A stretch of 64,000 bases of DNA, taken from NCBI GenBank assembly GCA_937872175.1, contig CALMPI010000009.1, positions 198,343-262,342 of the forward strand. The letters run 5' to 3'. Shown one piece after another: positions 28,396 to 53,713 of this stretch. How positions within the stretch are numbered: the stretch's first letter is position 1; the number at the start of each line of letters is the position of its first letter. Both the position numbers and the translations under genes were made by a program. Source of the DNA: an uncultured Flavobacteriales bacterium. GTDB taxonomy: Bacteria; Bacteroidota; Bacteroidia; Flavobacteriales_F; PHOS-HE28. The notes under the pieces are model-generated. The model worked only from the letters and a program-made list of their open reading frames with translations. It searched no databases and was not told the DNA's origin.

Positions 28396-28478
28396 GTGCC
28401 AGGCGATGTCGGTGGCGGTCAGCACGTGCACAAGGCTACGAAGCCATCCGGTTGCGCGGGGCCCCCTACCTTTTCGCC

Positions 28479-30566: not shown

Positions 30567-30596
30567 GGGCAGGCGGGATCGGGAGGGGCGATCGTG

Positions 30597-31238: not shown

Positions 31239-31247
31239 GACGCGAAG

Positions 31248-34415: not shown

Positions 34416-34635
34416 CGATGGCGGAAGTTCGGGAATATCGGGCCGCCCGCGCTGATGCCCTGTCCTGTTCCCGCGGCACGCACGCCGTGCCCACGACCGA
34501 CCGGCCGGCAGCTGGGCGCCGAGCGTGCGGCACCGCAAGGGATAGGGCCGGTGGACCGTCACAGGTCCGGGCCGCGCCCGAACGGCCTTCGGGGACCGGC
34601 TCCGTTCGCCGGCCACCTCAAGCCGCCCATCTGTC

Positions 34636-34651
34636 TCATTGGGACCAATGA
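34636..34651. promoter_or_regulatory. Second copy of the palindrome TCATTGG-GA-CCAATGA plus an extra half-site TCATTGG at about 34669-34675, in the divergent intergenic region about 100 nt upstream of the T9SS cargo gene and about 220 nt upstream of the kinase gene
   Basis: Read directly from the sequence (…ctgtctcattgggaccaatgatggaccatgccgaaggtcattgggatgg…). A TTCTTTTG element sits about 35 nt upstream of the cargo-gene ATG. Confidence 0.4.
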
Positions 34652-34751
34652 TGGACCATGCCGAAGGTCATTGGGATGGAGGATGGACGCCGCGCCGGGG
34701 CTGGGGTTCTTTTGCCGCGTGGCTTCACGATCAACGCTTGACCCTTGCACC

Positions 34752-36461
34752 ATGAGAACACTTCGTACCCCGCTCTTTTTCTTCATCCTGCTGCTCCGCA
34801 TGTCATCGGCTACCGCCCAATGGACGGATGTGGTGAACAACAACATCAACTTCGAGTTCCGCTCGGACCAGACCAGCTTCACGGGAAGCGACGACGGGTT
34901 CCCCACCTACGATGCCGAACCCACCGTGCGCAATGATTTCTGGGTGAGCAGCCTTGGTTGGTACGGATGGGTGTGCTCGAACTGGTCGACGTCCTCGGTA
35001 CCCTATCAGGGTGACCCGAGCGGCACCTATTTCTGGGGGACCAACCATCCGTTCACCGCGGAATTCCAGATCACGCTCCAGGCATGGGAATCGGACAACT
35101 CGGACCCGTGCAGCTACACCTCCGGCGATGACGATTTCTGGAACGGGAACGCCATCCTTCGTGACGGGAACATCCAGATGCCCGTGGTGTACCCCAGCAC
35201 GGATTTCAGGCCTTGCGCCTGGAACCCCTGGCTGGCCTCCGGCACGGGCTGGATCTTCCCGAACGCCGGGGTCTGGAACCAGATCTGGTCCGAGACGTGG
35301 CGCTATTCCGCCGGCGATGTGGCCTCCGATCCGCTCAGCTTCGGCACCATCACCACAGGTCAGACCAAGGCTGACATCAACGCGAACCGATCCGTTCCCG
35401 TGTCCAGCAGTGCGCCGCTCCAGTATGGGGACACCTACGGGGAGTCATCCGCTGACGTGTGGTACTCCTTCACACTGGATCAGGCCGCCACCGTCACCAT
35501 CAGCACGGATGATCCGGTGACCGACTTCGATACGAAGGCCTATTTGTTCTACGACTTCGGGAACATGATCGCCTCGGATGACGATGGCGGCACGGGCGCC
35601 ACATCGCTCATCACCACCGCTCTTTGTGCCGGCACCTACAAGGTGTGCGTCGAGGGCTTTTCGTCCAGCACGGGCCTGTTCCGCTTGTCGGTCACGGCGG
35701 GATCATTGAATGCGCTGTCGCTGGCCACCACGAACATCACGCCGGTGAGCTGCGCGAGCGCGACCGATGGGGCCGCCAGCTGGGCGACCGGGGGCGGAGT
35801 GGCCCCGTTCGAGTATGTGCTGGACGGGAACAACATCGGTGGAGCGACCTCGGGCGGTTCGCTCGGGTTGGGTGCGCACACCGTGATGGCCGAGGATGCA
35901 TGCGGATCGACGACCAGCATCACCTTCCAGGTCGACAATGGTGACAGCACCCCGCCGACGGCCGTATGTCTGGGCGCGCTCGCGGTGGATGTGATCGACC
36001 AGCAGACCACGATGCTCGATCCGGCGGAGGTGGACAATGGAAGCACGGATGACTGCGGTCCCGTCGATCTGAGCGTCTCGCCGGCCGCATTTGATGTGGA
36101 CGATGTCGGGTTGGTGGATGTGACCCTGACGGTGACCGATGGGAACGGGAACACCAGCACGTGCATCTGTGTGGCCGTGGTGCAGAACGTGACCGCGATC
36201 GGGGAGCCCGGCTCGGACGGTCGGATCCTCGCCGTACCCAACCCGACCGACGGTCAGGTCCGCCTCGATCTTTCGGCACTTGCGGTCGGCAGCGACACCC
36301 GATTGGAGCTTCTGGATGCGCTCGGTCGTTCGGTGCATGGTGTCCGGCCCGCCAGTTCCATCATGGACCTCGATCTGGGGCAGCTGGCCGACGGTGTGTA
36401 CACCGTGCAGCTCGTCGACCCGAACTGGCGGTCATCGACGCGTCTGGTGCTGCGTCGGTGA
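34752..36461 (+). CDS. T9SS-secreted multidomain protein: signal peptide, about 230-aa N-terminal domain of unknown family, PPC-like (pre-peptidase C-terminal) domain, SprB-type repeat, HYR-like domain, and a C-terminal Por secretion-tail (type A CTD)
   Basis: The start MRTLRTPLFFFILLLRMSSATAQ lies inside the 882-aa track ORF. The PPC-like segment (…VWYSFTLDQAATVTISTDDPV…YLFYDF…) is followed by a SprB-like repeat (SCASATDGAASWATGGGVAPFEYVL…). The CTD reads ILAVPNPTDGQVRLDL…GVYTVQLVD. Confidence 0.85.
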   Translation: MRTLRTPLFFFILLLRMSSATAQWTDVVNNNINFEFRSDQTSFTGSDDGFPTYDAEPTVRNDFWVSSLGWYGWVCSNWSTSSVPYQGDPSGTYFWGTNHPFTAEFQITLQAWESDNSDPCSYTSGDDDFWNGNAILRDGNIQMPVVYPSTDFRPCAWNPWLASGTGWIFPNAGVWNQIWSETWRYSAGDVASDPLSFGTITTGQTKADINANRSVPVSSSAPLQYGDTYGESSADVWYSFTLDQAATVTISTDDPVTDFDTKAYLFYDFGNMIASDDDGGTGATSLITTALCAGTYKVCVEGFSSSTGLFRLSVTAGSLNALSLATTNITPVSCASATDGAASWATGGGVAPFEYVLDGNNIGGATSGGSLGLGAHTVMAEDACGSTTSITFQVDNGDSTPPTAVCLGALAVDVIDQQTTMLDPAEVDNGSTDDCGPVDLSVSPAAFDVDDVGLVDVTLTVTDGNGNTSTCICVAVVQNVTAIGEPGSDGRILAVPNPTDGQVRLDLSALAVGSDTRLELLDALGRSVHGVRPASSIMDLDLGQLADGVYTVQLVDPNWRSSTRLVLRR

Positions 36462-37263: not shown

Positions 37264-39162
37264 CTATCGGCCGATGGAGGCTTGATCGGCCTTCACGACC
37301 TTGAACTCGGTGCGCCGGTTGGCCTGGTGCTCCTCTTCAGTGCACTTCACGCCATCGCCGCATCCGTTGACCAGCCGTTCCTCGCCGTATCCCATCGCAT
37401 GGACGCGCACGGGGTCGGCGCCACGACGGATCAGGTAGTTCACCGCGCTGTTCGCGCGCGCGTCGCTCAACACCAGGTTGTACGGCACGCTGCCACGGGC
37501 ATCGGTGTGGGCGCTGAGCTCGAAGCTCAGGTGCGGATTGTCGTTGATGAGCTGCACCACACGGTCAAGCTCCTTCGCGGCGTCCAGGCGGATGTCCCAT
37601 TTGTCGTAGTCGTAGTAGATGTTGTTGAGCACGAAGCTCTGCCCCACCTGGGCCCCTTGCAGTTGGATGCCATGGTGCAACGTGTCGGAGCGCAGCAGGC
37701 CTTTGGTGCTCACCTCGATCGAGCGGGTCAGGTGATCGGCATGCGCGGCCTTGATGCGGTAGTCGGTGTTCGGCTTCAGGGGGAACGAGAAGGCCCCGTT
37801 GGGACCGGTGATGGCCGTGACATCCTCGTTCAGCGTCAGGTCGGTGAGCGTCACATGGACGTTCGGCAGGAACAGGCCGGAATCGCCCGTCACCTCGCCT
37901 TCCACGAAGAAGGTGGGCTCATAGGCCCAGAACACGTAGACCTGATCGCTGCCTTCGCGGTTGCTGCTCAGATAGCCGCCCTGTTCAGTGCTGTCGAGCA
38001 CCAGGCCGAAGTCGTCGAACGGTGTGTTCAGCGGAGCGTTGAGGTTGCGCGGCGTGCTCCAGCCTTCGTTCTCCGGATGCGTCTCGAACACGTCCAGCCC
38101 CCCCATGTTGCGGTGCGCGGTGGAGGAGAAATAAAGCGACTTTCCGTTCACCACGGGGAACAGCTCATTGCCGGGGGTGTTCACCGTGGGCCCGAGGTTC
38201 ACCGGTGCGGTCCACCCGGCGCCGCGATCCTCGCTCATCCAGATGTCGGTTCCGCCAAGCCCCCCGGGACGGTCGCTCACGAAGTACATCGTGCGTCCAT
38301 CGGCGCTCAGCGCCGGATGCCCGGTGCTCCAGTCGGGACTGTTGTAGGGGAAGTCGATCAGGTCGCCCCATTGCCCTGCACTGTCCAGCGTGGCGCGGAA
38401 CAGCATCAGATGGCTCGTGTTGGCGTCGTCCTTCATGAGCCGGCGCTTCAAATAGTCGCTGCGGGTGAAGTAGAGCGTGCGTCCATCGGGGGAGAGCACG
38501 GCCGGCCCTTCGTGATAGGGACCGTTCACGGCGCCGGGGAGCGGTACGGCCTCGGTCCAGGTCACCACCGTGCGCTTCTCCACGGTATAGAGGTCCATGT
38601 ATGAGAGTCCGTCCCAGGGATCGGCCTTGGCGGCCGGCGCGGGCCGTTCACCCACCAGCAGAAGGCCCTTGCCATGGGGCCGTGGGCTGAAGGCCGTGGT
38701 GAGGCCGGGCAGGGTGAGGCGGTTGACGATGTAGCGGGCGCTGTCCGTGTAGAACAGGGCCACATCGCGGGTGGAGGCGAAGAGGTCCTGTGCCCGCCGG
38801 TCCTCGGGTGTCTCTTCCAACACGCGCAGGAAGAGCGCGGCCGCGGCATCGGTGCTCCCCGAGGAAAGCAGCACCTGTCCGTAGTGCAGCGCGGTGTCGC
38901 CGCTCAGGCGGAGCGTGGCGTCGGCGAGCGCATAGAGCTCGCGGGCCCTATGCGGGTCGTTCTGCCGGAAGAGCGCTTCGGCGAGCCGCACCTGCACGTG
39001 ACGGACCGGGGCACTTCGCAGGGCGCGGTCGAAATGGTGGGAGGCCTTGCGGTATTGCATCAGGTCGAAGGCCTTGTCGCCCTTGTGCAGGTGCAGGCTC
39101 GCGCAGGAGGTCAGCAGGGCCGCGCCGGCCAGAAGGAAGGTGTGGCGCACGGTTGGGCTCAT
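37264..39162 (-). CDS. OmpA-family peptidoglycan-associated lipoprotein with PorE-like architecture: lipobox signal, TPR region, TolB-like PD40 beta-propeller repeats, carboxypeptidase-regulatory-like domain, and a C-terminal OmpA_C domain
   Basis: The signal LLAGAALLTSC has a lipobox. PD40 repeats are present (LSPDGRTLYFTRSD, LSADGRTMYFVSDRPGGLGGTDIW). The OmpA_C motif reads NNIYYDYDKWDIR…LSAHTDARGSVPYNLVLSDARANSAVNYL…MGYGEERLVN…RRTEFKV. Confidence 0.85.
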   Translation of the reverse strand: MSPTVRHTFLLAGAALLTSCASLHLHKGDKAFDLMQYRKASHHFDRALRSAPVRHVQVRLAEALFRQNDPHRARELYALADATLRLSGDTALHYGQVLLSSGSTDAAAALFLRVLEETPEDRRAQDLFASTRDVALFYTDSARYIVNRLTLPGLTTAFSPRPHGKGLLLVGERPAPAAKADPWDGLSYMDLYTVEKRTVVTWTEAVPLPGAVNGPYHEGPAVLSPDGRTLYFTRSDYLKRRLMKDDANTSHLMLFRATLDSAGQWGDLIDFPYNSPDWSTGHPALSADGRTMYFVSDRPGGLGGTDIWMSEDRGAGWTAPVNLGPTVNTPGNELFPVVNGKSLYFSSTAHRNMGGLDVFETHPENEGWSTPRNLNAPLNTPFDDFGLVLDSTEQGGYLSSNREGSDQVYVFWAYEPTFFVEGEVTGDSGLFLPNVHVTLTDLTLNEDVTAITGPNGAFSFPLKPNTDYRIKAAHADHLTRSIEVSTKGLLRSDTLHHGIQLQGAQVGQSFVLNNIYYDYDKWDIRLDAAKELDRVVQLINDNPHLSFELSAHTDARGSVPYNLVLSDARANSAVNYLIRRGADPVRVHAMGYGEERLVNGCGDGVKCTEEEHQANRRTEFKVVKADQASIGR

Positions 39163-39164
39163 GA

Positions 39165-40088
39165 TCAGAAGTAACGGGGTGACTTGATGCGGATGGGGTC
39201 CTTGCCAAGGTCGATGCCGAGCATCACCTCATGCGATCCTCCACTGAAACGGCGCAGGCGTGAGGTGGTCATGTCGTAGGCATAACCCACCCGGAACACC
39301 GGCGTGATCTGGTATTCGACCATGGCGATGGCGCCGTCGCCGGTGCGGTAGCCAGCGCCCACCCAGAGCCGTTCGCGGAACAGGACGTTGCAGTTGATGT
39401 CGGCCTGGGGCGGCGCGGCGGTCTCCACCTTGATGAGCACCGAGGGCTTCAGGTCGATGCTCTCGCTGACGGGGAACACGCGTCCGGCGTGCAGATAGAA
39501 GTGACGCGTGAAGTAATCGTCCACCACGGTGGCGTTCGCCTGGCTCACCTGATCGTCCGCGCTGTAGAGGTTCGGCACGGACAGTCCGACGTAGGTGCGT
39601 GGGTCGTGCCAGTAGAGGCCGAAGCCGAACTTGCCCACGAGGGCGTTCCTCAGGTTCTGGGCATACACCGCATCGTCCTCATCCCAGTAGGTGAGTTCGC
39701 TGAGGCGTGCCGAGTACACGGATAGGCCGGCGCGCAGACCGAAGGCCAGGCGGCTCGATCCGCCGGTCCGGATGCTGTAGGCATAGTGCCCTGAGATGTC
39801 CAGGTCGCGGCTGATGCCGATCTGGTCGTGGACCACGGAGAGCCCGAGGCCCATGCGGTCTTTCCAGACCGGACCATCCACTGCGGCCATGCTGGTGCGC
39901 GGCGCGCCGGGCATGTTCGTCCATTGCTCGCGGTGCAGCAGGCTGCCGCTCACGTACGGATGGCTTCCGGCGTAGGCGGGGTTCAGGAAGAGCCCGTTGA
40001 ACATGTACTGGCTCACCATCACCTCCTGTTGCGCATGCGCCGATGCGCAGGCGAGCAGGATGAACAGCAGAGGTAGGATGCGGTGCAT
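39165..40088 (-). CDS. sprF: Type IX secretion system membrane protein, PorP/SprF family
   Basis: The signal peptide is MHRILPLLFILLACASAHAQ. The PorP/SprF signature QYMFNGLFLNPAYAG follows, with a beta-barrel-like remainder. The gene lies immediately 3' of the type-B CTD giant gene. The track start at 40127 is an alternative. Confidence 0.9.
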   Translation of the reverse strand: MHRILPLLFILLACASAHAQQEVMVSQYMFNGLFLNPAYAGSHPYVSGSLLHREQWTNMPGAPRTSMAAVDGPVWKDRMGLGLSVVHDQIGISRDLDISGHYAYSIRTGGSSRLAFGLRAGLSVYSARLSELTYWDEDDAVYAQNLRNALVGKFGFGLYWHDPRTYVGLSVPNLYSADDQVSQANATVVDDYFTRHFYLHAGRVFPVSESIDLKPSVLIKVETAAPPQADINCNVLFRERLWVGAGYRTGDGAIAMVEYQITPVFRVGYAYDMTTSRLRRFSGGSHEVMLGIDLGKDPIRIKSPRYF

Positions 40089-40123
40089 GGCGGAAGGTGT
40101 TTGCGTTCGTTCCGAGTTCGCGT

Positions 40124-43100
40124 TCATCGGCGGAGGTCCACGTAGTTCTGCATGGGAGCTCCATCGGGTGTCAGCGTGAGCACCACGAAGTAGGTGCCGT
40201 TGGGCAGCGGCTCGCCCTGCAGGTTCTCCCCGCTCCAGTCATTGGTGTAGCGCACACGGTCGTACACCACGTTGCCCCATCGGTTGTAGATGATGATGCG
40301 GTTGTCCGGATAGGCCTCGAGCCCTTGCACGACAAAGCTGTCGTTGCTTCCGTCCCCGTTCGGTGTGTAGCCGGTCGGCATCACCACGTCCATGGGCTGG
40401 TCGAGCGTGAAGGAGACGGTGATGCTGCAGCCGTTCGCATCGGTGATCGTCACGGTGTACGTGCCGGCGGCGAGCCCTTGCACCGTGGCCCCGTCGGCGC
40501 CGTTGCTCCAGGCGAAGCTGTACGGTGCCGTGCCGCCATCGGGTGTGATGGTGATGCTGCCGTCGTTGCTTTGGTGACCGCTGAGGTTGTATCCATTGGA
40601 GTAGGTCACCACCAGGCTGTCCAACGTCAGTGTGGCGCCATCGTTCACGGTGAAGGCGCTGTTCCAGGTGCATCCTGCGGCATCGCTCACGGTCACCGTG
40701 TAGGTGCCTGCGGCAAGCCCGCTCATGTCCTCGGACCCGGAGCCCGTGTTCCACAGGAAGCTGTATGGCATCGTGCCGCTGGTCACGCTGAGGTCGATGG
40801 AGCCGGTCGCGCCGGCCAGGCAGCTGGCATTGGTCACGACAGCCTCGGCGCTCAGGGCCGGCCCGCCCTCCACCTGCACAGGCAGCGTGGCGATGCAGCC
40901 GTTCAGGTCCGTGATGCTCACTTCGTAGGTGCCTGCGGTCAGGCCGGCGATGTCCTCGGTCGAGCTGCCATGGGCCCAGGCGAACGTGTAGGGAGCACCG
41001 CCGCCCGTCACGCTCACATCGACGGCGCCGTTGGCCTGGCCGCAGCCGGCCGCGGTGGCTGTGAACGTGGCGTCGATCGCGCTTGCCGCGATGAGGTCGG
41101 TGCAGGCCTGTGCCGAGCATCCGTTCGCGTCGGTCACCGTGAGGCAGTAGGTGCCCGCGCCCAGTCCGGCGATGCTGTCGGCGTTGCTGCTGAAGCTGCC
41201 CGGACCGGTCCAGAGGTAGGTGTACCCGCCCGCACCACCGCCGGCCAACGCGATGAGGAGGCCATCGTTGACACCGGCGCAGCTGGTGTTGCTGCCGCTC
41301 GGGTAGGTGAAGGCGACGGGCTGAGGATCCACCGGGTCGGGCGCGGTGATCACCACGTCCTGCAGGCTGACGCAGCCGTTCATGTCGGTCACGGTCAGGG
41401 TGTACGACCCTGCGGCGAGGCCGGTGAGGCTGTCGGCCGTGCTGGCAAAGCCGTTGGGGCCGCTCCAGTTGAGCTGTGCTCCGCCGTTGCCCCCGGTCAC
41501 GGTGGCGACCAGCACGGCATCGCCGACCCCGTCGCAGCTCGTGTTGAAGCCGTTGTAGGTGCTGATGTCCAGGACCGCCGCAAGTGCGCTATCGGGCTCG
41601 GTGAGCGTGATGGTGAGGAGGGTGGCGCATTGGTTCGCATCCGTGATCACCACTTCATAGTCACCGGCGATCACGCCGTTGAGGTCCTCGCTGGAGTAGT
41701 TCGTGCTGTCCGGTCCGCGCCAGTCGAAGGTGTACGGCCCTGAGCCACCACTGATGGTGAGGTCGATGCTGCCGTCGCTTCCGCCCAGGCAGCTGATGTT
41801 CGTGCCGCTCGGGAAGGCTTGGGCCGTGAGGCTGCCGTCGATCGGCTGCGCGGGTTCGGTCAGGGTGAAGCTCGTGTCGCGTTGACACCCGTTGGCATCG
41901 GTCACGCTCAGCATGTAGGTGCCGGCCACAAGGGCGGTGAGCGTGTCCGCACCGCTCGCGGTGAACCCGTTCGGTCCGCTCCAGAGCAGGTCCAGCGGTC
42001 CGGACCCTCCGGTGGCCAGCACCGCGATCACCCCGCTGCTGTCGCCGGTGCAGGCGATGTTCGTGGTTCCTGTCAGGCTTACATAGGTGCTGAGCTCGAT
42101 CGGTGCGCTGGCGGTCATGGTGGTGCTCCAGCTTCCGCTGCAGGACCCGGCATCGAGCACGGTCACGCTGTACGTGCCTCCGACCAGTCCGGAGAGGTCC
42201 TCGCTCGAGGCGCTGAATCCACCGGGGCCTGTCCAGGTGTAGGTGTATGGAAGCACCCCGCCGCTCACCTCCAGGTCGATCGTCCCGTCACTGCCGCCGT
42301 CGCACACGGTGCCGCTGTTGCTCAAGGCGGCCTGCAGCGGCTGGGGCGCTGTGAGCACGGCCTGCTCCGTGGCGATGCAGCCATTGGCATCCACGAGGGT
42401 CGCTACGTATGTGCCCGCCGCAAGGGCGTTCAGGTCCTCGGTGGCCGCCGTGAAGCCGTTGGGGCCGGTCCAGTCGATCTGGTAGGGGGCGAGGCCACCG
42501 GTGATGGTGAGGTCGATGCTTCCGTTCGCCGCCCCGCAGCCCACTTGGTAGCCATTGCCGGCATCGCTCAGCACCAGGTCGCCATCGAAGGCGGGTGGTG
42601 CGCTCAAGGCGAGGGCCTGCGTCACCGAGCATCCGGCGTCGTCGCTGACGATCACGGTGTAGGTCCCTGCGGCCGATCCGTTGATGATCGGTGTGGATGC
42701 CGTGAAGCCGCCCGGTCCGGTCCACGCATAGTGAAGCGTACCGAGGCCACCGGTGACGGTCGCCGTGATGCTGCCTTCCTCGCTGCCGGCACAGGGCAGG
42801 GTGTAGCCACCGCCGAACAGGGCGGCTTGAAGGTCCAGTGTGATCGGTGCCGGCGCCGTGAGCGTGGCGGTGATGGTTCCGGTGCACCCGTTCATGTCGG
42901 TGATCGTCGCCGTGTAATCCCCGGCCCCAAGGCCGCTGGGATCCTCGTCATTGCTCATGAAGCCGTTCGGTCCGCTCCAGATCACGCTGTACGGCGCCGT
43001 GCCGCCCTGCGCGGAGAGGTCGAGGGATCCGTCGCTGGCACCATCGCAGCTTACACCCGTGCCACCACCGAACACGCTCGTGGTGATGCTTCCATCCACC

Positions 43101-46100
43101 GGAGCTGGTGCTGTGAGCGTGACGTTCTCCTGCGCGGTGCAGCCCGCGATGTCGGTCACCTGGATCGCGTACGTGCCGGCCGCCAATCCCGTGGGGTCCT
43201 GCATGGAGGCGCTGAATCCGTTCGGACCGCTCCAGCTCACCGTGTACGGGGCCAGTCCTCCTGCGATGGTGGCATCGATGGAGCCGGTGGTCGCGCCGTC
43301 ACAGCTGGTGTTGGCGCCGCCGGGCCAGACACTGGCCAGCAGGCCTACGTTGAGCGGAGCAGGGGCCACGAGCGAGTATTGCTCGAGGTGGCTGCATCCG
43401 TTGACGTCGGTGATGATCACGAAGTAGTTGCCCGCAGGGACACCCATGATGTCCTCATCGTTGCTGGCGTATCCGTTCGGGCCTGTCCAGCTGTACTGGT
43501 AGCCGGGCGTGCCTCCGGTCACCCCGATGTCAAGGGATCCGTTCGAGGCACCTGCACAGCTCACCTGGTAGCCGCCCGGGTAGCCGCTCATCAACGAGCT
43601 CACCACGAACATGCCGGGTTCCTGCACGTTCACAGGCTGCGTCAACGTGCAGCCGTTCGCGTCGGTGATGGTGGCGACGTACACGCCGGCGTGCACGTTG
43701 GCGATGTCCTCGCTCGACGCACTGAAACCGTTCGGACCGCTCCAGCTGAAGGTCATGGGGGCGATGCCGCCGGCCGGGGTGAGGTCGATGGAGCCATCGG
43801 CGTTGCCCTGGCAGAGCGCGTCCTGTACCTGCTGCGTGGTGGTGAGGGCCGCCGGCTCGTCAAGCAGGAAGCTCGCCGATGCGGTGCATCCGTTGGCATC
43901 GAGCACGCTCACGGTGTATGTGCCTGCGGACAGACCGGAAGGGTCTTCCGCGGTGGCGACGAACGCGTTGGGGCCCGTCCATTGAAAGGTCGCGCCCCCG
44001 GCGCCACCATTGATGTCAAGGTCGATGCTGCCATCGGATCCGCCCGCGCAGGAGATCGCCGTGCCCCCCAGTGTGCTGCCGGGTGTGCCCGTGAGCACAA
44101 GCGCATCCGGTTCGGTGAGCGTGGCGCTGGCGTTCGCCACACAGCCGTTCGCGTCGACCACGGTGGCCGTGTAGGTCCCCGCCATCAGGTTGCTGAGGTC
44201 ACTGCCCGTGGCCGTGAAGCCGTTCGGGCCGCTCCAGGAGACGGACAAGGGAGCGCTGCCTCCGGAGAGGCTCAGGTCGATGGAGCCGTCGTTCGCGCCA
44301 TGGCAGGATACGGCATCACCGCTGGCGGTCTGGCTTAGCGCGAGGGTGGAGGTGATCGCTGCCGGTTCTTCGAGGACGACGGTCGCCATGTCGGTGCATC
44401 CGTTCGCGTCCGTCACGGTCAGGGTGTAGGTGCCCGCCGTCAGACCGGAGATGTCGTCGCTGCCGGACGTGTATCCGTTCGGTCCGGACCAGGCGTAGGA
44501 GAACGGCGCGGTGCCACCGAAGACCGTCGCATCGATGGCGCCGTCCGATCCGCCTACACAGCTGATCTCGCTGCCGTTGTGTTTGGGAGCGATGACCACC
44601 ACGTTGATCGTGGCCGGTGCGCTCAGGGTCCAGGCCTCTGCTGTGGAGCAGCCGTTCGCGTCGGTCACGGTCACGGTGTATGAGCCTGCGGCGAGGTTCG
44701 TCAGGTCCTCGTCCGTGCTCGTGAAGCCGTTGGGTCCGGACCAGGCGAAGGTGTAGGGCGCCGTCGCACCCGATACGCTGAGGGCGATGCTTCCGTCGGT
44801 GGCACCCGCGCAGCTTACACCGGAACCGTTGAGGTCGCTCAGGATGGCGGTGATGGTGAAGAGACCGGGCTGCATCACGCTGTAGGTGCGCTGGATGCTG
44901 CATCCGTTCGCATCGGTCACGAGCACGGTGTACGCACCGGCCGCCAGCCCGCTCAGATCGGCGGTGGTGGCGCTGAAGCCGTTGGGCCCGGACCAGCTCA
45001 TCAGATAGGGCGCGGTGCCCCCGGTCACGTTCAGGTCGATGGCGCCATCCGCTGCGCCCTGACAGGCGGCGGGGCTGATGCCGGCCGTGGCATCCAGCGC
45101 CGCAGGCTCGGTGAGGGTGAAACCCGCGGTCGTGGTGCAGCCGTTGCCGTCGCTCACCATCAGGGTGTAGGCACCGGCGCTCAGGCCCGTCACATCCTCA
45201 AGTCCGGTCTGGTTGCCCCACTGGTCCGACCAGAAGTAGTTGTACGGCCATGTACCACCGCTCACCGTTACATCGATCGCTCCATCGTCGCCGCCGTTGC
45301 AGGAGACGTTCGTTCCGGAGTGGTCGCTCAGCAGTCCGGTGATCGCGAGCGGTGAGGCCGGTTGCGTGATGGTGACCGGCATCTGCTTCGGGATCGCACA
45401 TCCGTTGTTGTCCACGACCGTGGCGGTCCAGGTCCCGGCGGCAAGGCCGGTCGCAAGGGCTCCGGTCTGCACCGGATTGGTGTTCCAGGTGATGCTGAAG
45501 TTCCCGCTGCCGCCCGTCACCTCGATCTCTGCGAAGCCATCGCTGCCGCCATGGCAGCTCACCATACCGAGGTTCTCCACGTAGGGCACGATGGTGGCGG
45601 CGGGCTGTGTGATCGTCACCACGGTGCCGGTACTGCAACCGTTCGCATCCTGCACGCTGGCGGTGTAGCTGCCGGCGATGAGGTTGGATGCGGTGCCGCC
45701 CGTCTGCACGGGTGTCGAGTTCCATGTGATGGAGTACGGCGCCGTGCCACCTGCGGCGATCACCGTGGCGGTACCGGTATTGGCCCCATGGCAAAGGACG
45801 TCCGTCACCGTGGATGCCGTGAGCGAAAGGGGGGCCGCAGGTCCGCCGATGGTCACGGTGGTGGATGCCGTGCATCCGTTGGCGTCCGTCGCGGTCGCCG
45901 TCCAGGTCCCTTGTGCGAGTCCGTTCGCCGTGGCACCGAACTGGATCGGCGTGGTGTTCCACGCATACGTGTAAGGCGCGGTTCCGCCCGTGGCGTTCAC
46001 CGTGGCCTGACCGTTGGCGCTGCCGAAGCAGCTCTGGTCCGTCATGGATATGGTGGTGAGCCCAAGGGCGACGGCCGGCGCGGTCACCACGGCCTGAGCG

Positions 46101-49100
46101 GTGGCGGTGCATCCGTTGGCGTCCGTGGCGGTCACCACGTAGGTCCCTGGGCCCACGTTCTCCAGGGTCGCCCCGGTCTGCACGGGGACGCTGTTCCAGC
46201 TGTAGCTCACGCCGCCCGTGCCACCGGTGGCGGCGGCCTCTGCCGCGCCATCGGTCAGTCCGAAGCAGCTCGCTCCGTCCAGGTGGATGATCGATGTCGC
46301 CAACGCGGTGGCCGGTGCATGGATGGTGGCACTGACCAGTGCGGTGCAGCCGTTGTCGTCGATCACCGTGCACAGGTAGGTGCCGGCAGCGAGCCCCGTG
46401 GCCTGTGGTGTGTGCTGCGCGGGCGTCGTGTTCCAGGCGTAGGAGTATGGCGCGGTGCCCAGAGTGGCGGCCACCTCCGCCGCGCCGGTGGCCTGGCCGA
46501 AGCAGCCCACATCGGTGGTGGAGATGAGAGCGGCCGTGAGGGTTCCCGCCGGTGCACCGATCGTCGCGTCCACCGTCGTGATGCACCCGTTCGCGTCCGT
46601 GACGGTACAGGTCCACGTGCCGGCGGACAGGTCGGTCGCCGTGGCGCCGGTCTGCACCGGGGTGGTGTTCCAGCTGGTCGCATAAGGGGCGGTGCCCCCG
46701 CTGACGTTCACGGTGGCGCTTCCGGTGTTGCCGGCGCAGGCCACGTCCGTGGTGCTGCCGATCACTGCGGTGAGGGAGGCGGCAGGCTGTGTCATCGGAA
46801 CGCTGGCGGTCGCGATGCATCCGTTGGCATCGGTCACCGTGCAGGTCCACACGCCAGCGGAAAGCCCGGTGGCCGTGGCCGAGAGTTGTGCAGGCACGGT
46901 ATTCCAGCTGTACGAATAGGGCGCGGTCCCACCGGTGGCGTTCACCACGGCGGAGCCGTCGTTGCCGCCATGGCAGGCCACCGCATCGAGCAGGGTGGCG
47001 GTGGCGTTCAGCGCAAGCGCCGGTTCACCGATCGTGACGCTCACCGCCGTGGAACAACCATGGTCATCGGTCACCGTGCACGTCCAGGTGCCGGCGCCGA
47101 GCCCGGTCGCCGTGGCGCCGCTCTGAACAGGCACCGTGTTCCAGGTGTAGGTGTACGGAGCGGTCCCGCCCGTGGCGTTCACGGTGGCGCTTCCGTTGCC
47201 GGCTCCCAGGCAGCCGGCATCGGTCTGGCTGTCGATCGTCGCGCTCAACGCGGCGGCCGGCTCTCCGATCGAGGCGATGGCCTGGGCGGCGCATCCGTTC
47301 GCATCCGTCACCGTCACGGTCCAGTTGCCGGCCGCAAGACCGGCAGCGCTCGCGGAGAGCTGTGCCGGTGCGGTGTTCCAGGCGAACTGATGAGGGCCCA
47401 CACCGCCGGTGACCGTGGCCGTGGCCGCGCCGGTGGCTCCGCCATGGCAGAGGGCATCGGCGGTGGAGGACACGGACGGAACGAGCGCCGCAGGTTCGGT
47501 GAGCACCACCGCGGCGTTCGCCTGGCATCCGTTGGCATCCGACACGGTCAGGGCGTACGCTCCGGCTGCAAGTCCACCGATGTCCGGCGTGTTCGCGGTG
47601 AAGCCGTTCGGTCCGGTCCACAGCACGCCGATCGGGGCCACGCCGCCCAGGATGGTGGCATCGACGCTGCCATCCATGGCGGCGAAGCAGGACACTCCGA
47701 AGCCATTGCCCAGATCGGCCGCCACAAGCTGGATCTGCACCGCCGGGGGTGGGCTGAGCGTGAAGGTCTCCGCCGTGGCGCAACCATTGTCGTCCGTGAC
47801 GGTGAAGGTGTATGTGCCCGTGCTGAGCCCACTGATGTCCTCGGCCGTGCTCGTGAACCCGTTCGGTCCCGTCCATGCGAAGGTGTATGGCGGTGTGGCG
47901 CCGCTGACGGTCATGGCGATGCTGCCATCCGCCGCTCCGGGGCAGCTCACATGCGCACCGCCGGGATAGGTGGTCGCCGCTCCGTTCACACTGAAGAGCC
48001 CGGGTTGGTTCACGTTCCAGCTGCTGGTCCCCACGCAGCCATTGGCGTCGGTGACGGTGAGCTGGTAAACACCTGCGGCAAGGCCGCTGATGTCGGCCGT
48101 CGCGGCGGTGAAGCCGCCAGGACCGGTCCAGTCATGCGTGTAGGGAGCGGTGCCACCGGTGGTGGTGATGTCCACGGCGCCGTTGTTCGCGCCCTGACAA
48201 GCGGCCGCGGTGATCGTAGCCGTGGTGCCGAGGGCGGCCGCTGGTTGACCCACGGTCCCCTGGGCGCTGCTCACGCAGCCCTGCGCATCGGTCACCGTGC
48301 ACGTCCAGGTGCCGCTGGCGAGGCTCGTGGCCGTGGTGCCCGACTGCACGGGATTCGTGTTCCAGCTGTACGAATAGGGCGTCGTTCCACCGGTCGCGCT
48401 GACCGTGGCCGTGCCGGTGGCATCGCCGAAGCATGCGGCCGGCGTGGTGAGGTCGATGGCGGCGGCGAGGGCAGCGGCGGGCTGGGTGATGGTCACCGGA
48501 CCGACGGCCGTGCATCCGTTCGCATCGGTCACCGTGCATGACCAGGTGCCCGCGGGCAGGTTGTTCGCCGTCGCTGCCTGCTGCGCCGGGCTCGTGTTCC
48601 ATGCATAGGCGTATGGCCCGGTGCCCCCGGATGCGCCGACCGTGGCGCTGCCATTGGAGCCGCCGAAGCAGCTCACGGGCATGCTCGTCGTCGTGTTCAC
48701 GGACACCGGAGCGGCGGGTTGTCCCACGGTCGCGCTTACGGTCGTGGTGCATCCATGCGCATCGATCACCGTGCAGGTCCAGGTGCCTGCGCTGAGGCCC
48801 GATGCGGTGGCGGTGTTCTGCGTCGGGCTCGTGTTCCACTGAAAGGTGTAAGGTGCTGTTCCCCCGCTGGCTCCGGCCGTGGCGCTGCCCGTCGCACCAC
48901 CATGGCACGTCACCGCGGTTTGCGCGGTGATGGAAGCGTTCAGTTGAGCGGGTTCGGAAACGGTCCAGCTGGCGGAGAACGAACAGCCGTTGGCATCGCT
49001 GAGCACCAGGGTGTACGCGCCGGCGGCGAGTCCGGTCAGGTCCTCCGCAGTGCTGGCGAACCCGTTCGGTCCGCTCCATGCGTAGCCGTATGCGCCGGTG

Positions 49101-52100
49101 CCCCCTGAAGCATCGATCGCGATCGCGCCCGAGGCGTCACTGCGACAGGTGAGGTCGGTCACGGTCGCCGTGGCGCTCAAGGCGGTGGGCTGACCCAGGA
49201 TCCAGTTCGCGTTCGCCGTGCAGCCATGAGCGTCGGTGACGGTCACCGCGTAGGTGCCGGCGATCAGGCCACCGGCAAGGTCGGCGCTGGTGCTGCTGAA
49301 ACCGCCCGGACCGGTCCACGCGTAGCTCATCGGTGCCGTGCCACCGCTGACGGTGAGGTCGATGCTGCCCGTGGTGCCACCGGCACAGCCGGGCGCGACC
49401 GTGCTCGCGCTCAGGGCGAGCGCCGCGGTCGGCCCTCCGATGGTGGCGTTCACCGTCGCGGCGAGCGGACATCCGTTCTGATCGCTGATGGTGGCCGTGT
49501 AGGTGCCGGCCGCCAGGCCGGTCGCCATGAGGCCGTTCTGCGGTGGGACCGTGCTCCAGTTCACCGCATAGCTCCCGCTACCCCCGGTGACGCTCAGCAC
49601 CGCGGTGCCCTCGAGGTCGCCGAAGCAGTCCTCCGGAGTGGTGCTGAGCAGATCCGCCTGCAGCGGTGCGGCCGGTTGTGTGATGGTGACCTGCGCCGTG
49701 GTCGTGCATCCGTTGGCATCGGTCACCGTGCAGGTCCAGGTGCCTGCGGCGAGGTCGCTTGCGGAAGCCGTGCTCTGCACGGGGCTCGTGTTCCAGGAAT
49801 AGGTGTACGGGCCGGTTCCGCCGGAAGCGCTCACGGTGGCACTGCCCGTGCTCGCACCATGGCAGAGCACGGGTGTGCTCGTCGCGATGACGGCAGTGAG
49901 CGCGGTGGCCGGTTCGCCGATGGTCACGTTCACGGCGGTGGTGCACAGGTTCACATCGGTCACCGTGCAGGTCCATGTCCCGGCCGGCAGGTTGAGGGCG
50001 GTGGCACCGTTCTGGGCCGGTGTGCTGTTCCAGCTGTAGGCATAGGGTCCCGTGCCTCCGGAGGCGGCCACCGTGGCGCTGCCGCTGGTGTTGCCGTGGC
50101 AGAGCACATCGGTGTGCATGTGCTCCGTGGCGCTCAAGGCGGCTGCCGGCTGGTTGATGGTCACGCTGTGCTGGGCGGTGCAGCCGTTGCCGTCGGTCAC
50201 CGTGGCGGTCCATGTGCCGGCCGGTAGGTTGATGGCCGTGGCACCGCTCTGCGCCGGAACCGTGTTCCAGGCGATCGCGTGCGGTGGTGTGCCACCGCTG
50301 ACCGCCACGGTGGCGCTGCCTGTGCTGGCGCCGAAGCAGCGCACATGGGTCACCATGTTCGTGGTGATGGTGATCGGGCTGGTGGGACCACCGATGCTGG
50401 CGGTCGCCGAACCGGTGCACCCGTAGCCGTCGCTCACCGTCACCGTCCAGGTCCCGGGGGTGAGCGCGGTGGCCGTGGCGGCGGATTGAGGGGGCGTGGT
50501 GTTCCACGCGTAGCTGTAGGGCGGGATGCCGCCGACCGCAGAGGCCGTCGCGCTGCCCGAACCATCGCCGGAACAGACCACGGCCGTGGTCTGGGCGATG
50601 GAGGCCACCACGGGGGTCGCTTCCACGAGGGTCACGTTGGAAGAAGCTGTGCAGCCGTTCGCATCGGAGACGTTCAGGGTGTACGTGCCGGCCATCAGTC
50701 CGGAGAGATCGGCCGATGTGCTGGTGAAGCCGTTCGGCCCGGACCAGCTTGGCGCGTAGGGTCCGGTGCCGCCGGTGATCGTGGCATCGATGGCCCCGTC
50801 GCTTCCGCCATGGCAGCTGATGTTCTGCCCGAAGGCGAGCACGGCCGGTTCAAGGTCCACCACCAGGATCCCGGGCTCCAGCACGGTGAAGCTCTGGGTG
50901 CGCGTGCACGCGTCATCCGTCACCGTCACGGTGTATGTGCCCGCAGAGAGGCCGGTGAGGTCCTGCGTGCTGGCGGTGTAGCCGTTCGGGCCGACCCAGC
51001 TGTAGGTGTACGGGGCCACACCACCGGTGGTGCTCAGGTTGATGGCACCGTTCGACTGGCCGTTGCAAAGCGGCGCGGTGATCACGGCGCTCAGCGCGAG
51101 GTTGCTCACGCGCACCTGCCGGCCCACGCTGCGGGTGCAACTGCCATCCGAGATGGTCACCACATAGGTGGTGGTGCTGGTGGGCGAGGCCGCGGGGTTC
51201 GGACAGTTCGTGCAGCTGAGGCCGGTGGTGGGGCTCCAGCTGTAGGCGCTTCCACCGGTGACCTGCAGCGGCCAGGAGCCGCCCGCGCAGATGGTCCCAC
51301 CGGGCGAGACGGTCGCGAACAAGGTGTCGAGCAACGGGAAGCTCAGCGAGTCGAGGTTCTGCGCCGGGCAGAAGGGATTGCCCAGGATGAAGAGCAGTTC
51401 CTCGGTGTTCTCGTTGAGGCCATCGATCAGGGGGCTCACCGCACGGTCCACGTACGTCTGGTTCGCGGGGATCACGATGGACTTCGGAAGCAGGGGGTTC
51501 ACGGGCGGGATGGCCGTGTAGTCCGCGCCGTTGGTGGCGCTGCCCTGGATATAGTACTGGATGCTGAGCGGCGTGGGTTGTGCGAAGGGACGTTCGAAGC
51601 GCACCCAACCCGGGTTGCAGCCCTCGACGAGCTCTGGGGTGCCATTGGCCGTGAAGGCCTGCATGGTCACGTTGTTGCTCTCGATCTTCTCGATGAAGAC
51701 ACCGGAGTCGTATTTGCGGTCCGACGCGTCGGCGATGATGAGCTTCAGGTGGTAGGTCTGGCACGGGGTCACCGCACTGCGCGCCACCAGGTCCTGTGTG
51801 AAGCCGTCGTATTGAATGGTGGCGCCACCGGCATTGTCGAAGTAGTGGGCGGAGTTGCTGCCGTTGTTGACGGTGTTGATCGTCACCGGTTGGTTGCCGC
51901 CGGGGATGAGCGCGATGTTCTTCTCACTGCCCGCATTGGGGTCGCCCACGATGCCGGGACCGCTGATGTAGAACCCGAACACATCGTTGTACTGGGATCC
52001 CACCCACTCATTGTACTCCTCGCTGGCGAACACGAAGTTGAACGAGAGGCTGTCCCCGGTGGGGATGATGTCGAACTCGAACTTGCACGCGTCCATCGTG

Positions 52101-52465
52101 GTGCGCCCGGTGACGGCGTTGAGCACGGGGTCGCCCGGTGTCCCTTGGGCGAACCAGTTGCCGCCGCCACCATTGTTGTTTGGACCGATGGCATCGGTGA
52201 TGCGCCCTGTGGTGAGGATCACGCCCTCCTCGGCGGAGAGCGCGCTCCCGCTGTAGCTGAACTCGCCGTAACCCAGGCCATGGCAGGTGATCACCGGGTT
52301 GCTGATGGTGACACCGGGACCGGTGATGCTGGCCGCGAGCTGCTGCAGATCGGTCTGCGCGTTCACCACCAGCTGGGCGTTCGCGGACGGGGTGATGACG
52401 CACAGTGCCGCGACGACGAGCGTCGCGGCGGCGGAACGGCGGCGATCGTGGCGCATCGTGCTCAT
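40124..52465 (-). CDS. Giant cell-surface adhesin (4113 aa), SprB-like: signal peptide, N-terminal choice-of-anchor-L-like domain, about 40 tandem SprB-type repeats, and a C-terminal gliding-motility-associated type-B T9SS sorting domain
   Basis: The N-terminus is [31 protein letters not shown]. The repeats have the form …C.G..[ND]G.[IA].[LV]..[ST]GG..PY.[YF].W.GP.G[FY]…GL.AG.Y.[LV].V.D.NGC…. The C-terminus [36 protein letters not shown]…[20 protein letters not shown] is a CHU_C/type-B CTD. Confidence 0.93.
   Translation of the reverse strand: [4113 protein letters not shown]
40408..51058 (-). repeat. In-frame tandem array of about 40 degenerate SprB-type repeats, each about 250-270 nt (about 85 aa), inside the giant adhesin gene; this is coding sequence, not CRISPR
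   Basis: The TGG[ST]xPY / GPNGF / NGC motifs recur at regular ~85-aa spacing through the protein. At the DNA level the copies have diverged and the spacers are not unique, so this is not CRISPR-like. Confidence 0.8.
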
Positions 52466-52839
52466 TGGTTGCGGGCGTTGGCGCAGCGGGCTTCGACCTG
52501 CTGCTGGGTCAGCGTCTCTTCATGGATGCGGGCGCTGGTCACTGTGCGCGCAATGCTCGCGGCGGCGGCGCTGCGCGGATCGATCCCGCTCTGCGGGTCC
52601 ACTGGAGCGAGCACCAGCAGACCGGCAGGTACACAGGCGTAGGCCAGCTTGACGCCGGTACCGTTCTGTAGGTCCTGGGCAAGCGCATCACGTTCTTGTA
52701 CCGTGAGGCCGTCCACGCGCAGCGCCAGGGTCGTTGCCGGGTTGGACTGTGCCTGCGATCCGATGGCGCTGGTCAGCAGAAGGATGCTGAGCGTCAGGCC
52801 TTTGAAGAAGGCGTTCCGTTCCATGGTCCGTTCATTCAC
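52462..52839 (-). CDS. Small secreted hypothetical protein (~120 aa) translationally coupled to the giant adhesin gene (4-nt ATGA overlap)
   Basis: Signal peptide MERNAFFKGLTLSILLLTSAIGSQAQ. The stop codon overlaps the adhesin start. There is a single Cys pair and no recognisable family. Confidence 0.55.
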   Translation of the reverse strand: MNERTMERNAFFKGLTLSILLLTSAIGSQAQSNPATTLALRVDGLTVQERDALAQDLQNGTGVKLAYACVPAGLLVLAPVDPQSGIDPRSAAAASIARTVTSARIHEETLTQQQVEARCANARNQ

Positions 52840-52963
52840 ACGAGCCTCCGGGATGAGTGGTCCCGGGGTTCGCGGCCCTTTCTACCGGACCATGGGCGGA
52901 AAGGTTATCGACCGGTGCGAACGGATGTTCGACGAGCGGCGGGGACCGACCGCCCGAACCGGC

Positions 52964-53713
52964 TTACCGGGGGGGCGCGTTGCGCGCGATGAGGGCGGCG
53001 TAGAGCGCGATGCCGGCCGCCACACTGACGTTCAAGGAGCCCAACCGACCGGCCATGGGAATGCGCACAAGGGCATCGGCCAGGCGCAATACCCGGTCGC
53101 TCACCCCGGTGTCCTCGGCGCCCAGCACCAGCACCAAGGGTCCGGCGAGGTCGGCGCCCTGGATGTCCACAGCGGCTTTTTCGGTGCAGGCCACGATGCG
53201 AAGGCCGTGCGCCCGTGCCACGTGCAGGCCGTCCACCAGCATGCGGGTGCGGCACACGGGCAGCCGCATCAGGGCTCCGGCCGAACTTTTCACCGCATCG
53301 GGCCCCAGCCGGGCGGATCCGCTCGAGGGCACCAGAAGCCCGTGAGCGCCCAGGCATTCGGCGCTGCGGGCCACGGCGCCCACGTTGCGCACATCGGTCA
53401 CACCGTCCAACGCGACGATCAGCGGTCGCTCCCCTCGTTCGTAGGCCATGCTGATCACCTCATCGAGGTCCTGACGGCCCACGGGGCTGACAAAGGCCAC
53501 CACCCCCTGGTGTTCGCCACGGACCAGGCGGTCCAGCTTCTCGGTCGGCACCATCTGCACCGGCACACCCTGCCCTTGGGCGGCCAGCCTCACGGTGCGC
53601 GGCCCTTCTCCCGTGGCATCGCGTTTCATCAGCACGCGCTCCACCGTGGCGCCCGATCGCAGGGCCTCCAGCACTGGGTGCACGCCGTAGAGTATGCCGT
53701 CCTGGCCAGCCAT
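52964..53713 (-). CDS. rlmB: SpoU/TrmH-family RNA 2'-O-methyltransferase, most like 23S rRNA (Gm2251) methyltransferase RlmB
   Basis: An N-terminal substrate-binding domain (ILYGVHPVLEALRSG) is followed by the SPOUT core (LIVALDGVTDVRNVGAVARSAECLGAHGLLVP … LVLGAEDTGVS). Confidence 0.75.
   Translation of the reverse strand: MAGQDGILYGVHPVLEALRSGATVERVLMKRDATGEGPRTVRLAAQGQGVPVQMVPTEKLDRLVRGEHQGVVAFVSPVGRQDLDEVISMAYERGERPLIVALDGVTDVRNVGAVARSAECLGAHGLLVPSSGSARLGPDAVKSSAGALMRLPVCRTRMLVDGLHVARAHGLRIVACTEKAAVDIQGADLAGPLVLVLGAEDTGVSDRVLRLADALVRIPMAGRLGSLNVSVAAGIALYAALIARNAPPR

Follow-up and report, generated by a model that had tools for sequence, protein, structure and literature searches.

Proteins that a type IX secretion system (T9SS) exports through a type-B sorting domain are thought to form two classes, one riding the gliding track and the other held fast at the cell wall, and the question raised by the locus described here is to which of the two its very large adhesin belongs. 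The locus lies in a stretch of 64,000 nucleotides (hereafter the window) from an uncultured Flavobacteriales bacterium (GenBank assembly GCA_937872175.1, contig CALMPI010000009.1, positions 198,343 to 262,342 of the forward strand), and it holds genes for a small secreted protein, a giant adhesin with SprB-type repeats, an outer-membrane barrel of the PorP/SprF family and a lipoprotein resembling PorE. These four genes probably form an operon that makes, exports and ties to the cell wall a surface adhesin of 4,113 residues, and we assign a probability of about 0.6 to the reading that the locus is a self-contained operon, in an uncultured, high-GC clade of Flavobacteriales, building a very long and probably non-motile surface fibre. 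We also consider it a somewhat better than even bet that the locus belongs to the static class (cargo, shuttle and PorE-like anchor) and is not an orthologue of SprB, because its carrier has a cysteine-free tail, a PorE-like gene is adjacent and neither sprC nor sprD is present.

Gorasia et al. (2022) showed a complex of PorE, PorP and PG1035 in Porphyromonas gingivalis, and also the binding of SprB to SprF (PMC9143113). Six porP-like genes of Flavobacterium johnsoniae adjoin porE-like genes, whereas sprB and sprF do not, and it was proposed that a mobile cargo has no other hold than its carrier, whereas PorE-like proteins give a non-mobile cargo an additional link to the wall (PMC9143113). 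Paillat et al. (2025) reported five F. johnsoniae operons composed of a type-B cargo, a shuttle and a PorE homologue; the cargo Fjoh_3952 appears static, whereas SprB, Fjoh_4750 and part of Fjoh_1123 are mobile, and none of the latter three has a porE-like neighbour (PMC12618676). Liu et al. found that the Cys324-x-Cys326 motif in SprF's periplasmic C-terminal tail forms a disulfide to Cys343 of GldK, and that this Cys-x-Cys is invariant in close homologues of SprF and needed for movement but not for export (PMC12635249).

The window has a G+C content of 65%, and the region 37264-52839 contains four open reading frames (ORFs) on the minus strand, with coding-type G+C at third codon positions (GC3) of 0.78-0.86. 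In the order of transcription the genes, and beneath them the parts of the adhesin, are:

52462-52824, minus strand, small secreted protein gene, 120 amino acids (ATG start at 52824)
40124-52465, minus strand, giant adhesin gene, 4,113 amino acids, 19.3% of the window (ORF and domain searches)
39165-40127, minus strand, PorP/SprF-family barrel gene, 320 amino acids (TIGR03519, PF11751)
37264-39162, minus strand, PorE-like lipoprotein gene, 632 amino acids (Pfam domains and lipobox)
51686-52345, minus strand, choice-of-anchor L head of the adhesin, residues 41-260 (NF038133; predicted beta jelly-roll)
51326-51673, minus strand, Calx-beta-like domain of the adhesin, approximately residues 265-380
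40436-51268, minus strand, SprB-type Ig-like repeat stalk of the adhesin (PF13573 and Cys/NGC periodicity)
40127-40381, minus strand, type-B T9SS C-terminal sorting domain (CTD) of the adhesin, residues 4029-4113 (TIGR04131, CHU_C)

The original prediction, made from the letters and their ORFs, had placed these four genes between 37264 and 52839 on one strand, had given the giant ORF 4,113 residues and about 19% of the window, and had read in it a choice-of-anchor-like N-terminal domain, some 40 SprB repeats and a CHU_C/type-B sorting domain, followed by a PorP/SprF partner and by a lipoprotein with the four-domain layout of PorE. All of this is borne out by the ORF calls and by the profile searches given below.

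The adhesin starts with a head that is matched by the choice-of-anchor L model (NF038133 / PF26766) at 248 bits against a cut-off of 27, over model positions 1-216 of 219. PF13573 matches 40 stretches of the protein with a total score of 1066 bits, and approximately residues 400-4010 repeat every 78-85 amino acids with paired cysteines and NGC motifs, which suggests a stalk of about 44 Ig-like units, Pfam recognising 40 of them. At about 4 nm per unit, a value of our own estimation, the fibre would be roughly 150 nm long. Tandem Repeats Finder reports no tandem repeats in the DNA of the gene, so the repeat units are old and diverged and a collapse in assembly is unlikely. The amino acid composition (108 Cys, 8 Lys, 26 Arg, 210 Asp and 71 Glu) gives a net charge of about -250; the cysteines are regularly placed, with two to three in each repeat. 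At the C-terminus, a scan of the whole adhesin gave CHU_C (PF13585) an E-value of 1e-22 and TIGR04131 a score of 46 bits (cut-off 35), but because it also yielded a cumulative type-A score, the last 120 amino acids were scanned again alone. There the type-B model TIGR04131 scores 53.8 bits (cut-off 35) versus 27.8 for the type-A model TIGR04183, and CHU_C reaches 87.9 bits with Por_Secre_tail at 21, under its cut-off of 27. Since the type-B model outscores the type-A model on this segment alone, the sorting domain is, by profile score, a type-B CTD.

The next gene encodes a clear member of the PorP/SprF family, with 266.4 bits against TIGR03519 (cut-off 90.55; model positions 2-291 of 292) and an E-value of 2.3e-72 against PF11751. 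Type-B cargoes usually need a cognate PorP/SprF-like protein, rather than PorV, for their secretion, and from the adjacency of the two genes the barrel is presumed to be the adhesin's dedicated partner. The Cys-x-Cys motif of the SprF C-terminal tail is lacking from this carrier: its tail is GKDPIRIKSPRYF (...IRIKSPRYF), the last 40 residues contain no cysteine, and the tail is cysteine-free in 18 of 18 complete orthologues as well. A search for homologues of the carrier returned matches only from the same clade, and no solved structure related to it in sequence was found. The extreme C-terminus, ...IK(T/S)PRYF (39165-39200, minus strand), lies beyond the end of the PorP/SprF profile and is almost invariant in the orthologues (L021-L085); it could serve for docking in the periplasm, perhaps of the PorE-like protein.

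The last gene encodes a lipoprotein (lipobox LLTS/C, the slash marking the cleavage site here and below) in which Pfam finds TPR, PD40 beta-propeller, CarboxypepD_reg (CRD) and OmpA domains. It aligns with positions 5-598 of the 648 in the PorE model NF052230 at 346.8 bits (cut-off 600), and end to end with the CHU_0125 model NF053607, its best-scoring NCBIfam model, at 393.3 bits (cut-off 620). Among solved structures the best match of its OmpA_C domain is the peptidoglycan-bound P. gingivalis PorE structure 6TOP (E 1.6e-17), and the peptidoglycan-binding motif N..LS..RA..V can be read in the alignment. On this similarity the PorE-like protein is presumed to link the carrier to peptidoglycan.

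The original prediction had called the locus one of gliding adhesion, and it is this label that is not supported, given a carrier without Cys-x-Cys, an adjacent PorE-like gene and no sprC or sprD. Upstream of the adhesin neither sprC nor sprD is found, the genes there being the small gene, rlmB, a GWxTD-domain gene and rmuC (by domain assignment, made without sequence comparison to SprC and SprD). The same prediction had remarked that the gene order differs from that of sprCDBF, and in this it was right: sprC and sprD are missing, the small gene lies upstream and the porE-like gene lies downstream.

A comparison across genomes indicates that this arrangement is kept throughout a clade. When one genome per species was scanned, the small gene was present, once each, in 80 species-level genomes, all of them metagenome-assembled genomes (MAGs) of uncultured Flavobacteriales or Bacteroidota. 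With the window proteins as tblastn queries, the order rmuC, GWxTD, rlmB, small gene and adhesin head was recovered in essentially all 80, and in every locus with enough sequence in its 10-kb flank the type-B CTD, porP and the porE-like gene come next. Depending on the species, the adhesin measures between about 2,200 and about 4,200 residues. Its head is 60-94% identical to that of the window in all loci but L087 (46%), and in most loci (L001-L087) it exceeds both rlmB (59-93%) and the GWxTD gene (45-91%); conservation above that of housekeeping neighbours is unusual for the exposed tip of an adhesin. For the small protein, identity is only 30-45% once the closest relatives are set aside. Among 78 non-redundant loci, 39 have the first in-frame adhesin ATG overlapping the small-gene stop by 4 nt and 5 more have a 1-nt overlap; another 14 place this ATG 2-12 nt downstream of the stop.

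Two relatives fall outside the clade. One is a Chitinophagales locus (L089/L090) with a 614-residue protein joining choice-of-anchor L to CHU_C, followed by PorP and by a TPR/PD40/OmpA gene; the other is an orphan without an adjacent carrier. Head, CTD, carrier and anchor are on this comparison a widespread core, to which the SprB stalk and the small gene are clade-specific additions. Two loci depart from the common pattern. In the long-read MAG GCA_016703685.1 (L005:10369-20363) the adhesin orthologue appears as two overlapping ORFs of 2,337 and 1,787 amino acids, either through a frameshift or pseudogene or through sequencing error. In contig PVMK01029418.1 of GCA_003359175.1 (L091:3761-4763) the 3' end of the small gene runs in frame into the final eight codons of porP (...KIKSPRYF), with the porE-like gene directly after it, and the upstream order is GWxTD, rlmB and an inserted PMT_2 glycosyltransferase gene ahead of the small gene; the adhesin and most of porP appear to have been deleted, or the contig may be misassembled.

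The junctions within the operon are close. The small gene and the adhesin gene share a 4-nt stop-start overlap (ATGA), the adhesin gene overlaps the annotated start of porP by 4 nt, and porP is separated from the porE-like gene by 2 nt without overlap. Judged from homologues of about 310 amino acids, porP may instead start at an internal ATG at 40088, which would leave a gap of 36 nt after the adhesin gene. For the small ORF an alternative GTG start would give 52462-52839, but the ATG at 52824 is the likelier on sequence grounds, with a product of 120 amino acids that agrees with its homologues.

The original prediction had described the small upstream ORF as a coupled, secreted protein of no recognisable family, and it is indeed a real and conserved gene. 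Its ratio of nonsynonymous to synonymous change (dN/dS) is 0.21-0.28 against the closest orthologues; searches of Pfam, NCBIfam and PHROG assign the protein to no family, and none of 93 scanned members of its own family has a Pfam match. Close homologues (68-96% identity) occur only in MAGs named 'Flavobacteriales bacterium'. An exhaustive profile search of 1.84 billion protein representatives yielded 110 clusters, nearly all of 110-136 amino acids, the outliers in length being fragments or chimaeras. Across the family the predicted cleavage site of the signal peptide, A25/Q26, is near-invariant as A/Q, and an invariant Cys-x-Pro within ACVPAG and a GLT..RD loop are found; the near-invariant residues include the cysteines C64 and C114 and also R45, D46, E111 and R118. 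As the protein lacks a T9SS CTD, it should remain in the periplasm. An AlphaFold2 model has the order beta-alpha-beta-beta-alpha-beta plus a C-terminal helix, with a mean confidence (pLDDT) of about 88 over residues 30-120. The best matches in the PDB are heavy-metal-associated (HMA) domains such as that of ZntA (1MWY), with which the model shares its topology, the GLT..RD loop standing where HMA domains have GMTCxxC; unlike them the small protein has no CxxC, no Pfam HMA match, an extra C-terminal helix and conserved cysteines elsewhere. A metal-binding HMA role was considered and rejected, as the loop reads GLT..ERD without CxxC and Pfam finds no match.

The small protein may act as a dedicated periplasmic accessory, for instance as a holdase, or as an assembly factor, that serves either the adhesin or the complex of carrier and anchor, and this is the weakest step of the proposed mechanism. 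More speculative, and in our judgement a long shot, is that with its HMA-like fold and two near-invariant cysteines it is a dedicated component of type-B T9SS export that has gone unrecognised, either a holdase or, by analogy with SprF-GldK and PorG-GldK, a disulfide-linked adaptor between carrier and anchor, and that the whole module is switched by an extracytoplasmic function (ECF) sigma factor via a new leader RNA. Signal peptides were read straight from the sequence by eye. The adhesin's is MSTMRHDRRRSAAATLVVAALCVITPSANA followed by Q, with cleavage near residue 30 (ANA/Q), and all three predicted signal-peptidase-I sites leave glutamine at +1: AQA/Q in the small protein (52747-52749), ANA/Q in the adhesin (52375-52377) and AHA/Q in the PorP-like protein (approximately 40028-40030). 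A glutamine at this position fits the Bacteroidota 'Q-rule' of N-terminal pyroglutamate.

Ahead of the small gene is a gap of 139 nt to rlmB, which contains two further features:

52880-52906, minus strand, bipartite promoter-like element AACCTTT-N14-GTAGAA (-35-like part 52900-52906, -10-like part 52880-52885)
52848-52866, minus strand, candidate leader stem-loop CCGGGA-CCACTCA-TCCCGG (covariation and minimum free energy, MFE)

An alignment of the gap shows one block that is better conserved than its flanks. Three elements recur clade-wide, namely nnAACCTTT-14 nt-GTAtAA, a hairpin with a variable stem and the conserved loop C(C/T)ACTCA, and GAACGAAnnGGACC, a conserved block immediately 5' of the small-gene ATG. 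In 1.36 Mb of related loci, both strands considered, AACCTT[TC]-N14-GTAnAA has 61 matches, 60 of which lie 20-140 nt upstream of the small gene, versus 0.07 expected from base composition. The window has a single match, that at 52880-52906, with 0.03 expected by chance. Almost every locus has a 14-nt spacer, though the search admitted 13-19 nt, and in nearly all loci the motif lies 44-82 nt before the start codon. ECF-sigma promoters (sigW, sigE) combine an AAC-containing -35 with a short -10 across a spacer of some 16-17 nt, and the housekeeping promoters of Bacteroidota are of the type TTG / TAnnTTTG. In its AAC-type -35 and its spacing the motif resembles the former and is unlike the latter. 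A generic scan for sigma-70 promoters and terminators gave nothing useful, with no terminator-like site after rlmB.

For the five-pair stem in 37 leaders, 80% of the cells are paired as against 60% in shuffles, there are 39 double changes as against 14, and controls with the stem slid along the leader are all much lower; these 37 leaders were picked by eye and the stem was named by us, so that the figures carry a selection bias. Over 72 unselected, non-redundant leaders the MFE z-score averages -1.64, and 44 of them have an ACWC motif in a hairpin loop. RNAalifold predicts no pairs on the gap-rich leader alignment, and a search of the whole window against Rfam has no hit at gathering thresholds, the gap giving only matches at chance level. 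The hairpin is thus a candidate for a new cis-regulatory RNA. Since a clade-conserved bipartite motif lies in the 139-nt gap together with a leader hairpin that co-varies, it is probable that the adhesin genes are served by a regulated promoter of their own.

Taken together, these observations suggest the following course of events. Transcription would start from the ECF-sigma-like promoter after rlmB and pass through the structured leader. All four proteins would cross the inner membrane by Sec, the PorE-like product with a lipoprotein signal and the other three with glutamine at +1, and the small protein, whose synthesis the ATGA overlap would couple to that of the adhesin, might act as a dedicated periplasmic accessory. 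The T9SS would recognise the adhesin by its type-B CTD, a domain that was found here and whose recognition is expected by homology, and the adhesin would be passed to the PorP-like barrel and stay bound to it, by analogy with SprB-SprF, Fjoh_3952-Fjoh_3951 and PG1035-PorP. The PorE-like protein may then bind the barrel with its TPR and propeller domains and peptidoglycan with OmpA_C, so that the fibre would be fixed to the wall and kept off the gliding track. Some 44 SprB repeats would hold the jelly-roll and Calx-beta head, the likely ligand-binding tip, about 150 nm from the cell.

Several points weigh against this picture. All members of the clade are MAGs, known from sequence alone. The rule that defines the static class comes from a postulate and one imaged F. 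johnsoniae cargo, few cases in all, and the assignment was drawn from the locus itself. The lipoprotein scores below both the PorE and the CHU_0125 cut-offs, which by profile score makes it a paralogue and not an equivalog. The promoter is read from the motif, the window holds no ECF sigma gene, and read-through from rlmB may occur. As for the small protein, the likeness of its model to the HMA fold is weak (E 8e-3; TM-score 0.45 by query and 0.68 by target), its association with the adhesin is inferred from coupling and position, in one contig (L091) the small gene persists although the adhesin is gone, and the same triad of cargo, carrier and anchor exists in Chitinophagales without it.

These last points bear on an unlikely though still live alternative, in which the small ORF is no accessory of the adhesin and encodes an independent periplasmic protein, or serves chiefly as a device for translational coupling or as a leader that shares the transcript. 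Such a role would suit the Chitinophagales triads without a small gene, the survival of the small gene as a fusion in L091 after both adhesin and porP were lost, the fast evolution of the protein (30-45% identity across the clade versus mostly 60-90% for the adhesin head) and its lack of a match to any known chaperone family or fold. Against it, the gene is single-copy and in the same place beside the adhesin gene in all 80 genomes, the overlap or near-abutment of stop and start is conserved, and purifying selection, invariant residues and a confidently modelled fold argue for more than a spacer.

An improbable second alternative is that the giant protein is after all an SprB-type gliding adhesin, its PorP/SprF partner coupling it to the moving track and the PorE-like protein serving in general T9SS function. 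It is like SprB in size and repeat build; it carries 40 SprB repeats and ends in a type-B CTD, and next to its gene stands one of the PorP/SprF family; some type-B cargoes are mixed static and mobile, as is Fjoh_1123 (PMC12618676); and relatives are named 'gliding motility-associated-like' in their sources, a label that is only generic. However, the motif required for SprF-driven movement (PMC12635249) is absent from the carrier tail here and from all 18 orthologues, the porE-like gene is adjacent, unlike the situation of the known mobile cargoes of F. johnsoniae (PMC9143113, PMC12618676), neither sprC nor sprD occurs at the locus, and the lipoprotein is a cargo-linked paralogue below the PorE cut-off. 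A wall-fixed fibre remains the reading that we prefer.

The original prediction had further supposed that housekeeping and adhesin genes may be co-transcribed, with co-directional neighbours overlapping by 1-4 nt. The overlaps are present between rmuC and the GWxTD gene (4 nt), between the GWxTD gene and rlmB (1 nt) and between the small and adhesin genes, but not between rlmB and the small gene or between porP and the porE-like gene. A single transcript of rmuC, GWxTD, rlmB and the adhesin genes, with the gap motif as a site of regulator binding or RNA processing, would accord with the common direction of all the genes, the synteny from rmuC to the adhesin kept across the clade and the want of a terminator-like site after rlmB. 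We find it doubtful, since the gap holds a near-unique promoter-like motif whose 14-nt spacer, AAC-type -35 and position before the start codon are so constant, and since gap and motif persist in some genomes whose locus lacks rmuC (not detected in 8 of the 80 genome loci, among those with an upstream flank long enough); some read-through from rlmB may nonetheless take place. A separate promoter is still favoured. A polymorphic toxin of the TANFOR type (PMC7073777) was considered and rejected for a repeat-filled protein that ends in a T9SS CTD, has no toxin domain and has its small gene upstream.

The operon sits in the core chromosome. The rlmB, GWxTD and rmuC genes that had been predicted upstream of the small gene are confirmed by domain searches, and the GWxTD-domain gene (53713-54996, minus strand) stands between rmuC and rlmB in nearly all genomes of the clade. 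Genes for lipA, uracil-DNA glycosylase and a YkuD protein also lie upstream of the locus, and a cluster of ribosomal-protein genes, rpoA and EF-G occupies approximately 4.4-22.4 kb (by gene order and sizes, with L17, RpoA, S11 and S13 scanned). Convergent with the operon on its far side are a small DnaJ/KTSC gene and a gene for a PPC-domain protein with a type-A T9SS tail (approximately 34650-36461, plus strand; Por_Secre_tail 25.3 bits, just below the cut-off), which had been passed over by the GC3 filter through its atypically low G+C at first codon positions. With a type-A tailed protein beside a type-B adhesin, the organism has both kinds of T9SS cargo. Further on, 28452-34616 encodes a class III adenylate/guanylate cyclase, a LuxR-type response regulator and a sensor kinase of 1,122 amino acids (Reg_prop, Y_Y_Y); this stretch lies about 3 kb past the end of the operon and has no evident link to it. 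No tRNA or tmRNA genes were found in the window.

If the reading is right, the locus is a clean, clade-wide natural example of the wall-fixed class, with an extreme fibre of 4,113 residues. Several isolate names point to activated sludge, where a long fixed adhesin could matter for attachment in flocs or biofilms. The promoter-like motif and leader hairpin offer a handle on the regulation of such adhesins. The small coupled protein is the only component without precedent; should export or anchoring prove to depend on it, the type-B pathway would gain a further part, and should they not, the locus would be a well-annotated but ordinary T9SS adhesin operon.

The arrangement of cargo, shuttle and anchor is itself already known from F. 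johnsoniae, and is also found in Chitinophagales; what appears, by sequence comparison, to be specific to this clade is the extreme SprB-repeat stalk, the coupled small protein of an undescribed family and the conserved ECF-like promoter element with its structured leader. The closest parallels are Fjoh_3952/3951/3950 and the four other F. johnsoniae operons, which have the same gene order of type-B cargo, PorP/SprF-like barrel and PorE-like lipoprotein (PMC12618676; PMC9143113). With Fjoh_3952-3950, compared by description, the locus would share a dedicated shuttle and a static, wall-anchored complex; it differs in its far larger cargo, choice-of-anchor-L head, coupled small gene, and promoter-like element with leader. 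The Chitinophagales triad has the same head domain, the same type of CTD and the same two downstream partners, but its protein is short, with no SprB stalk and no small upstream gene. The PorE-PorP-PG1035 complex of P. gingivalis comprises the same three protein classes, with the four-domain layout of PorE and the best OmpA_C match (6TOP), but there PorP and PorE are single-copy core parts of the T9SS, with porP beside porKLMN, whereas here both are cargo-linked paralogues. The lipoprotein also aligns end to end with the model of Cytophaga hutchinsonii CHU_0125, an OmpA-like lipoprotein of outer-membrane integrity (PMC5891637), from which it differs in scoring under the equivalog cut-off and in being set in a cargo operon. 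With SprB and SprF of F. johnsoniae (sprCDBF), finally, the locus shares a giant protein built of SprB repeats, a CTD of type B and, downstream, a carrier of the PorP/SprF family, but it departs from them in having no sprC or sprD, no Cys-x-Cys tail, a PorE-like gene, a choice-of-anchor-L head and a predicted static behaviour.

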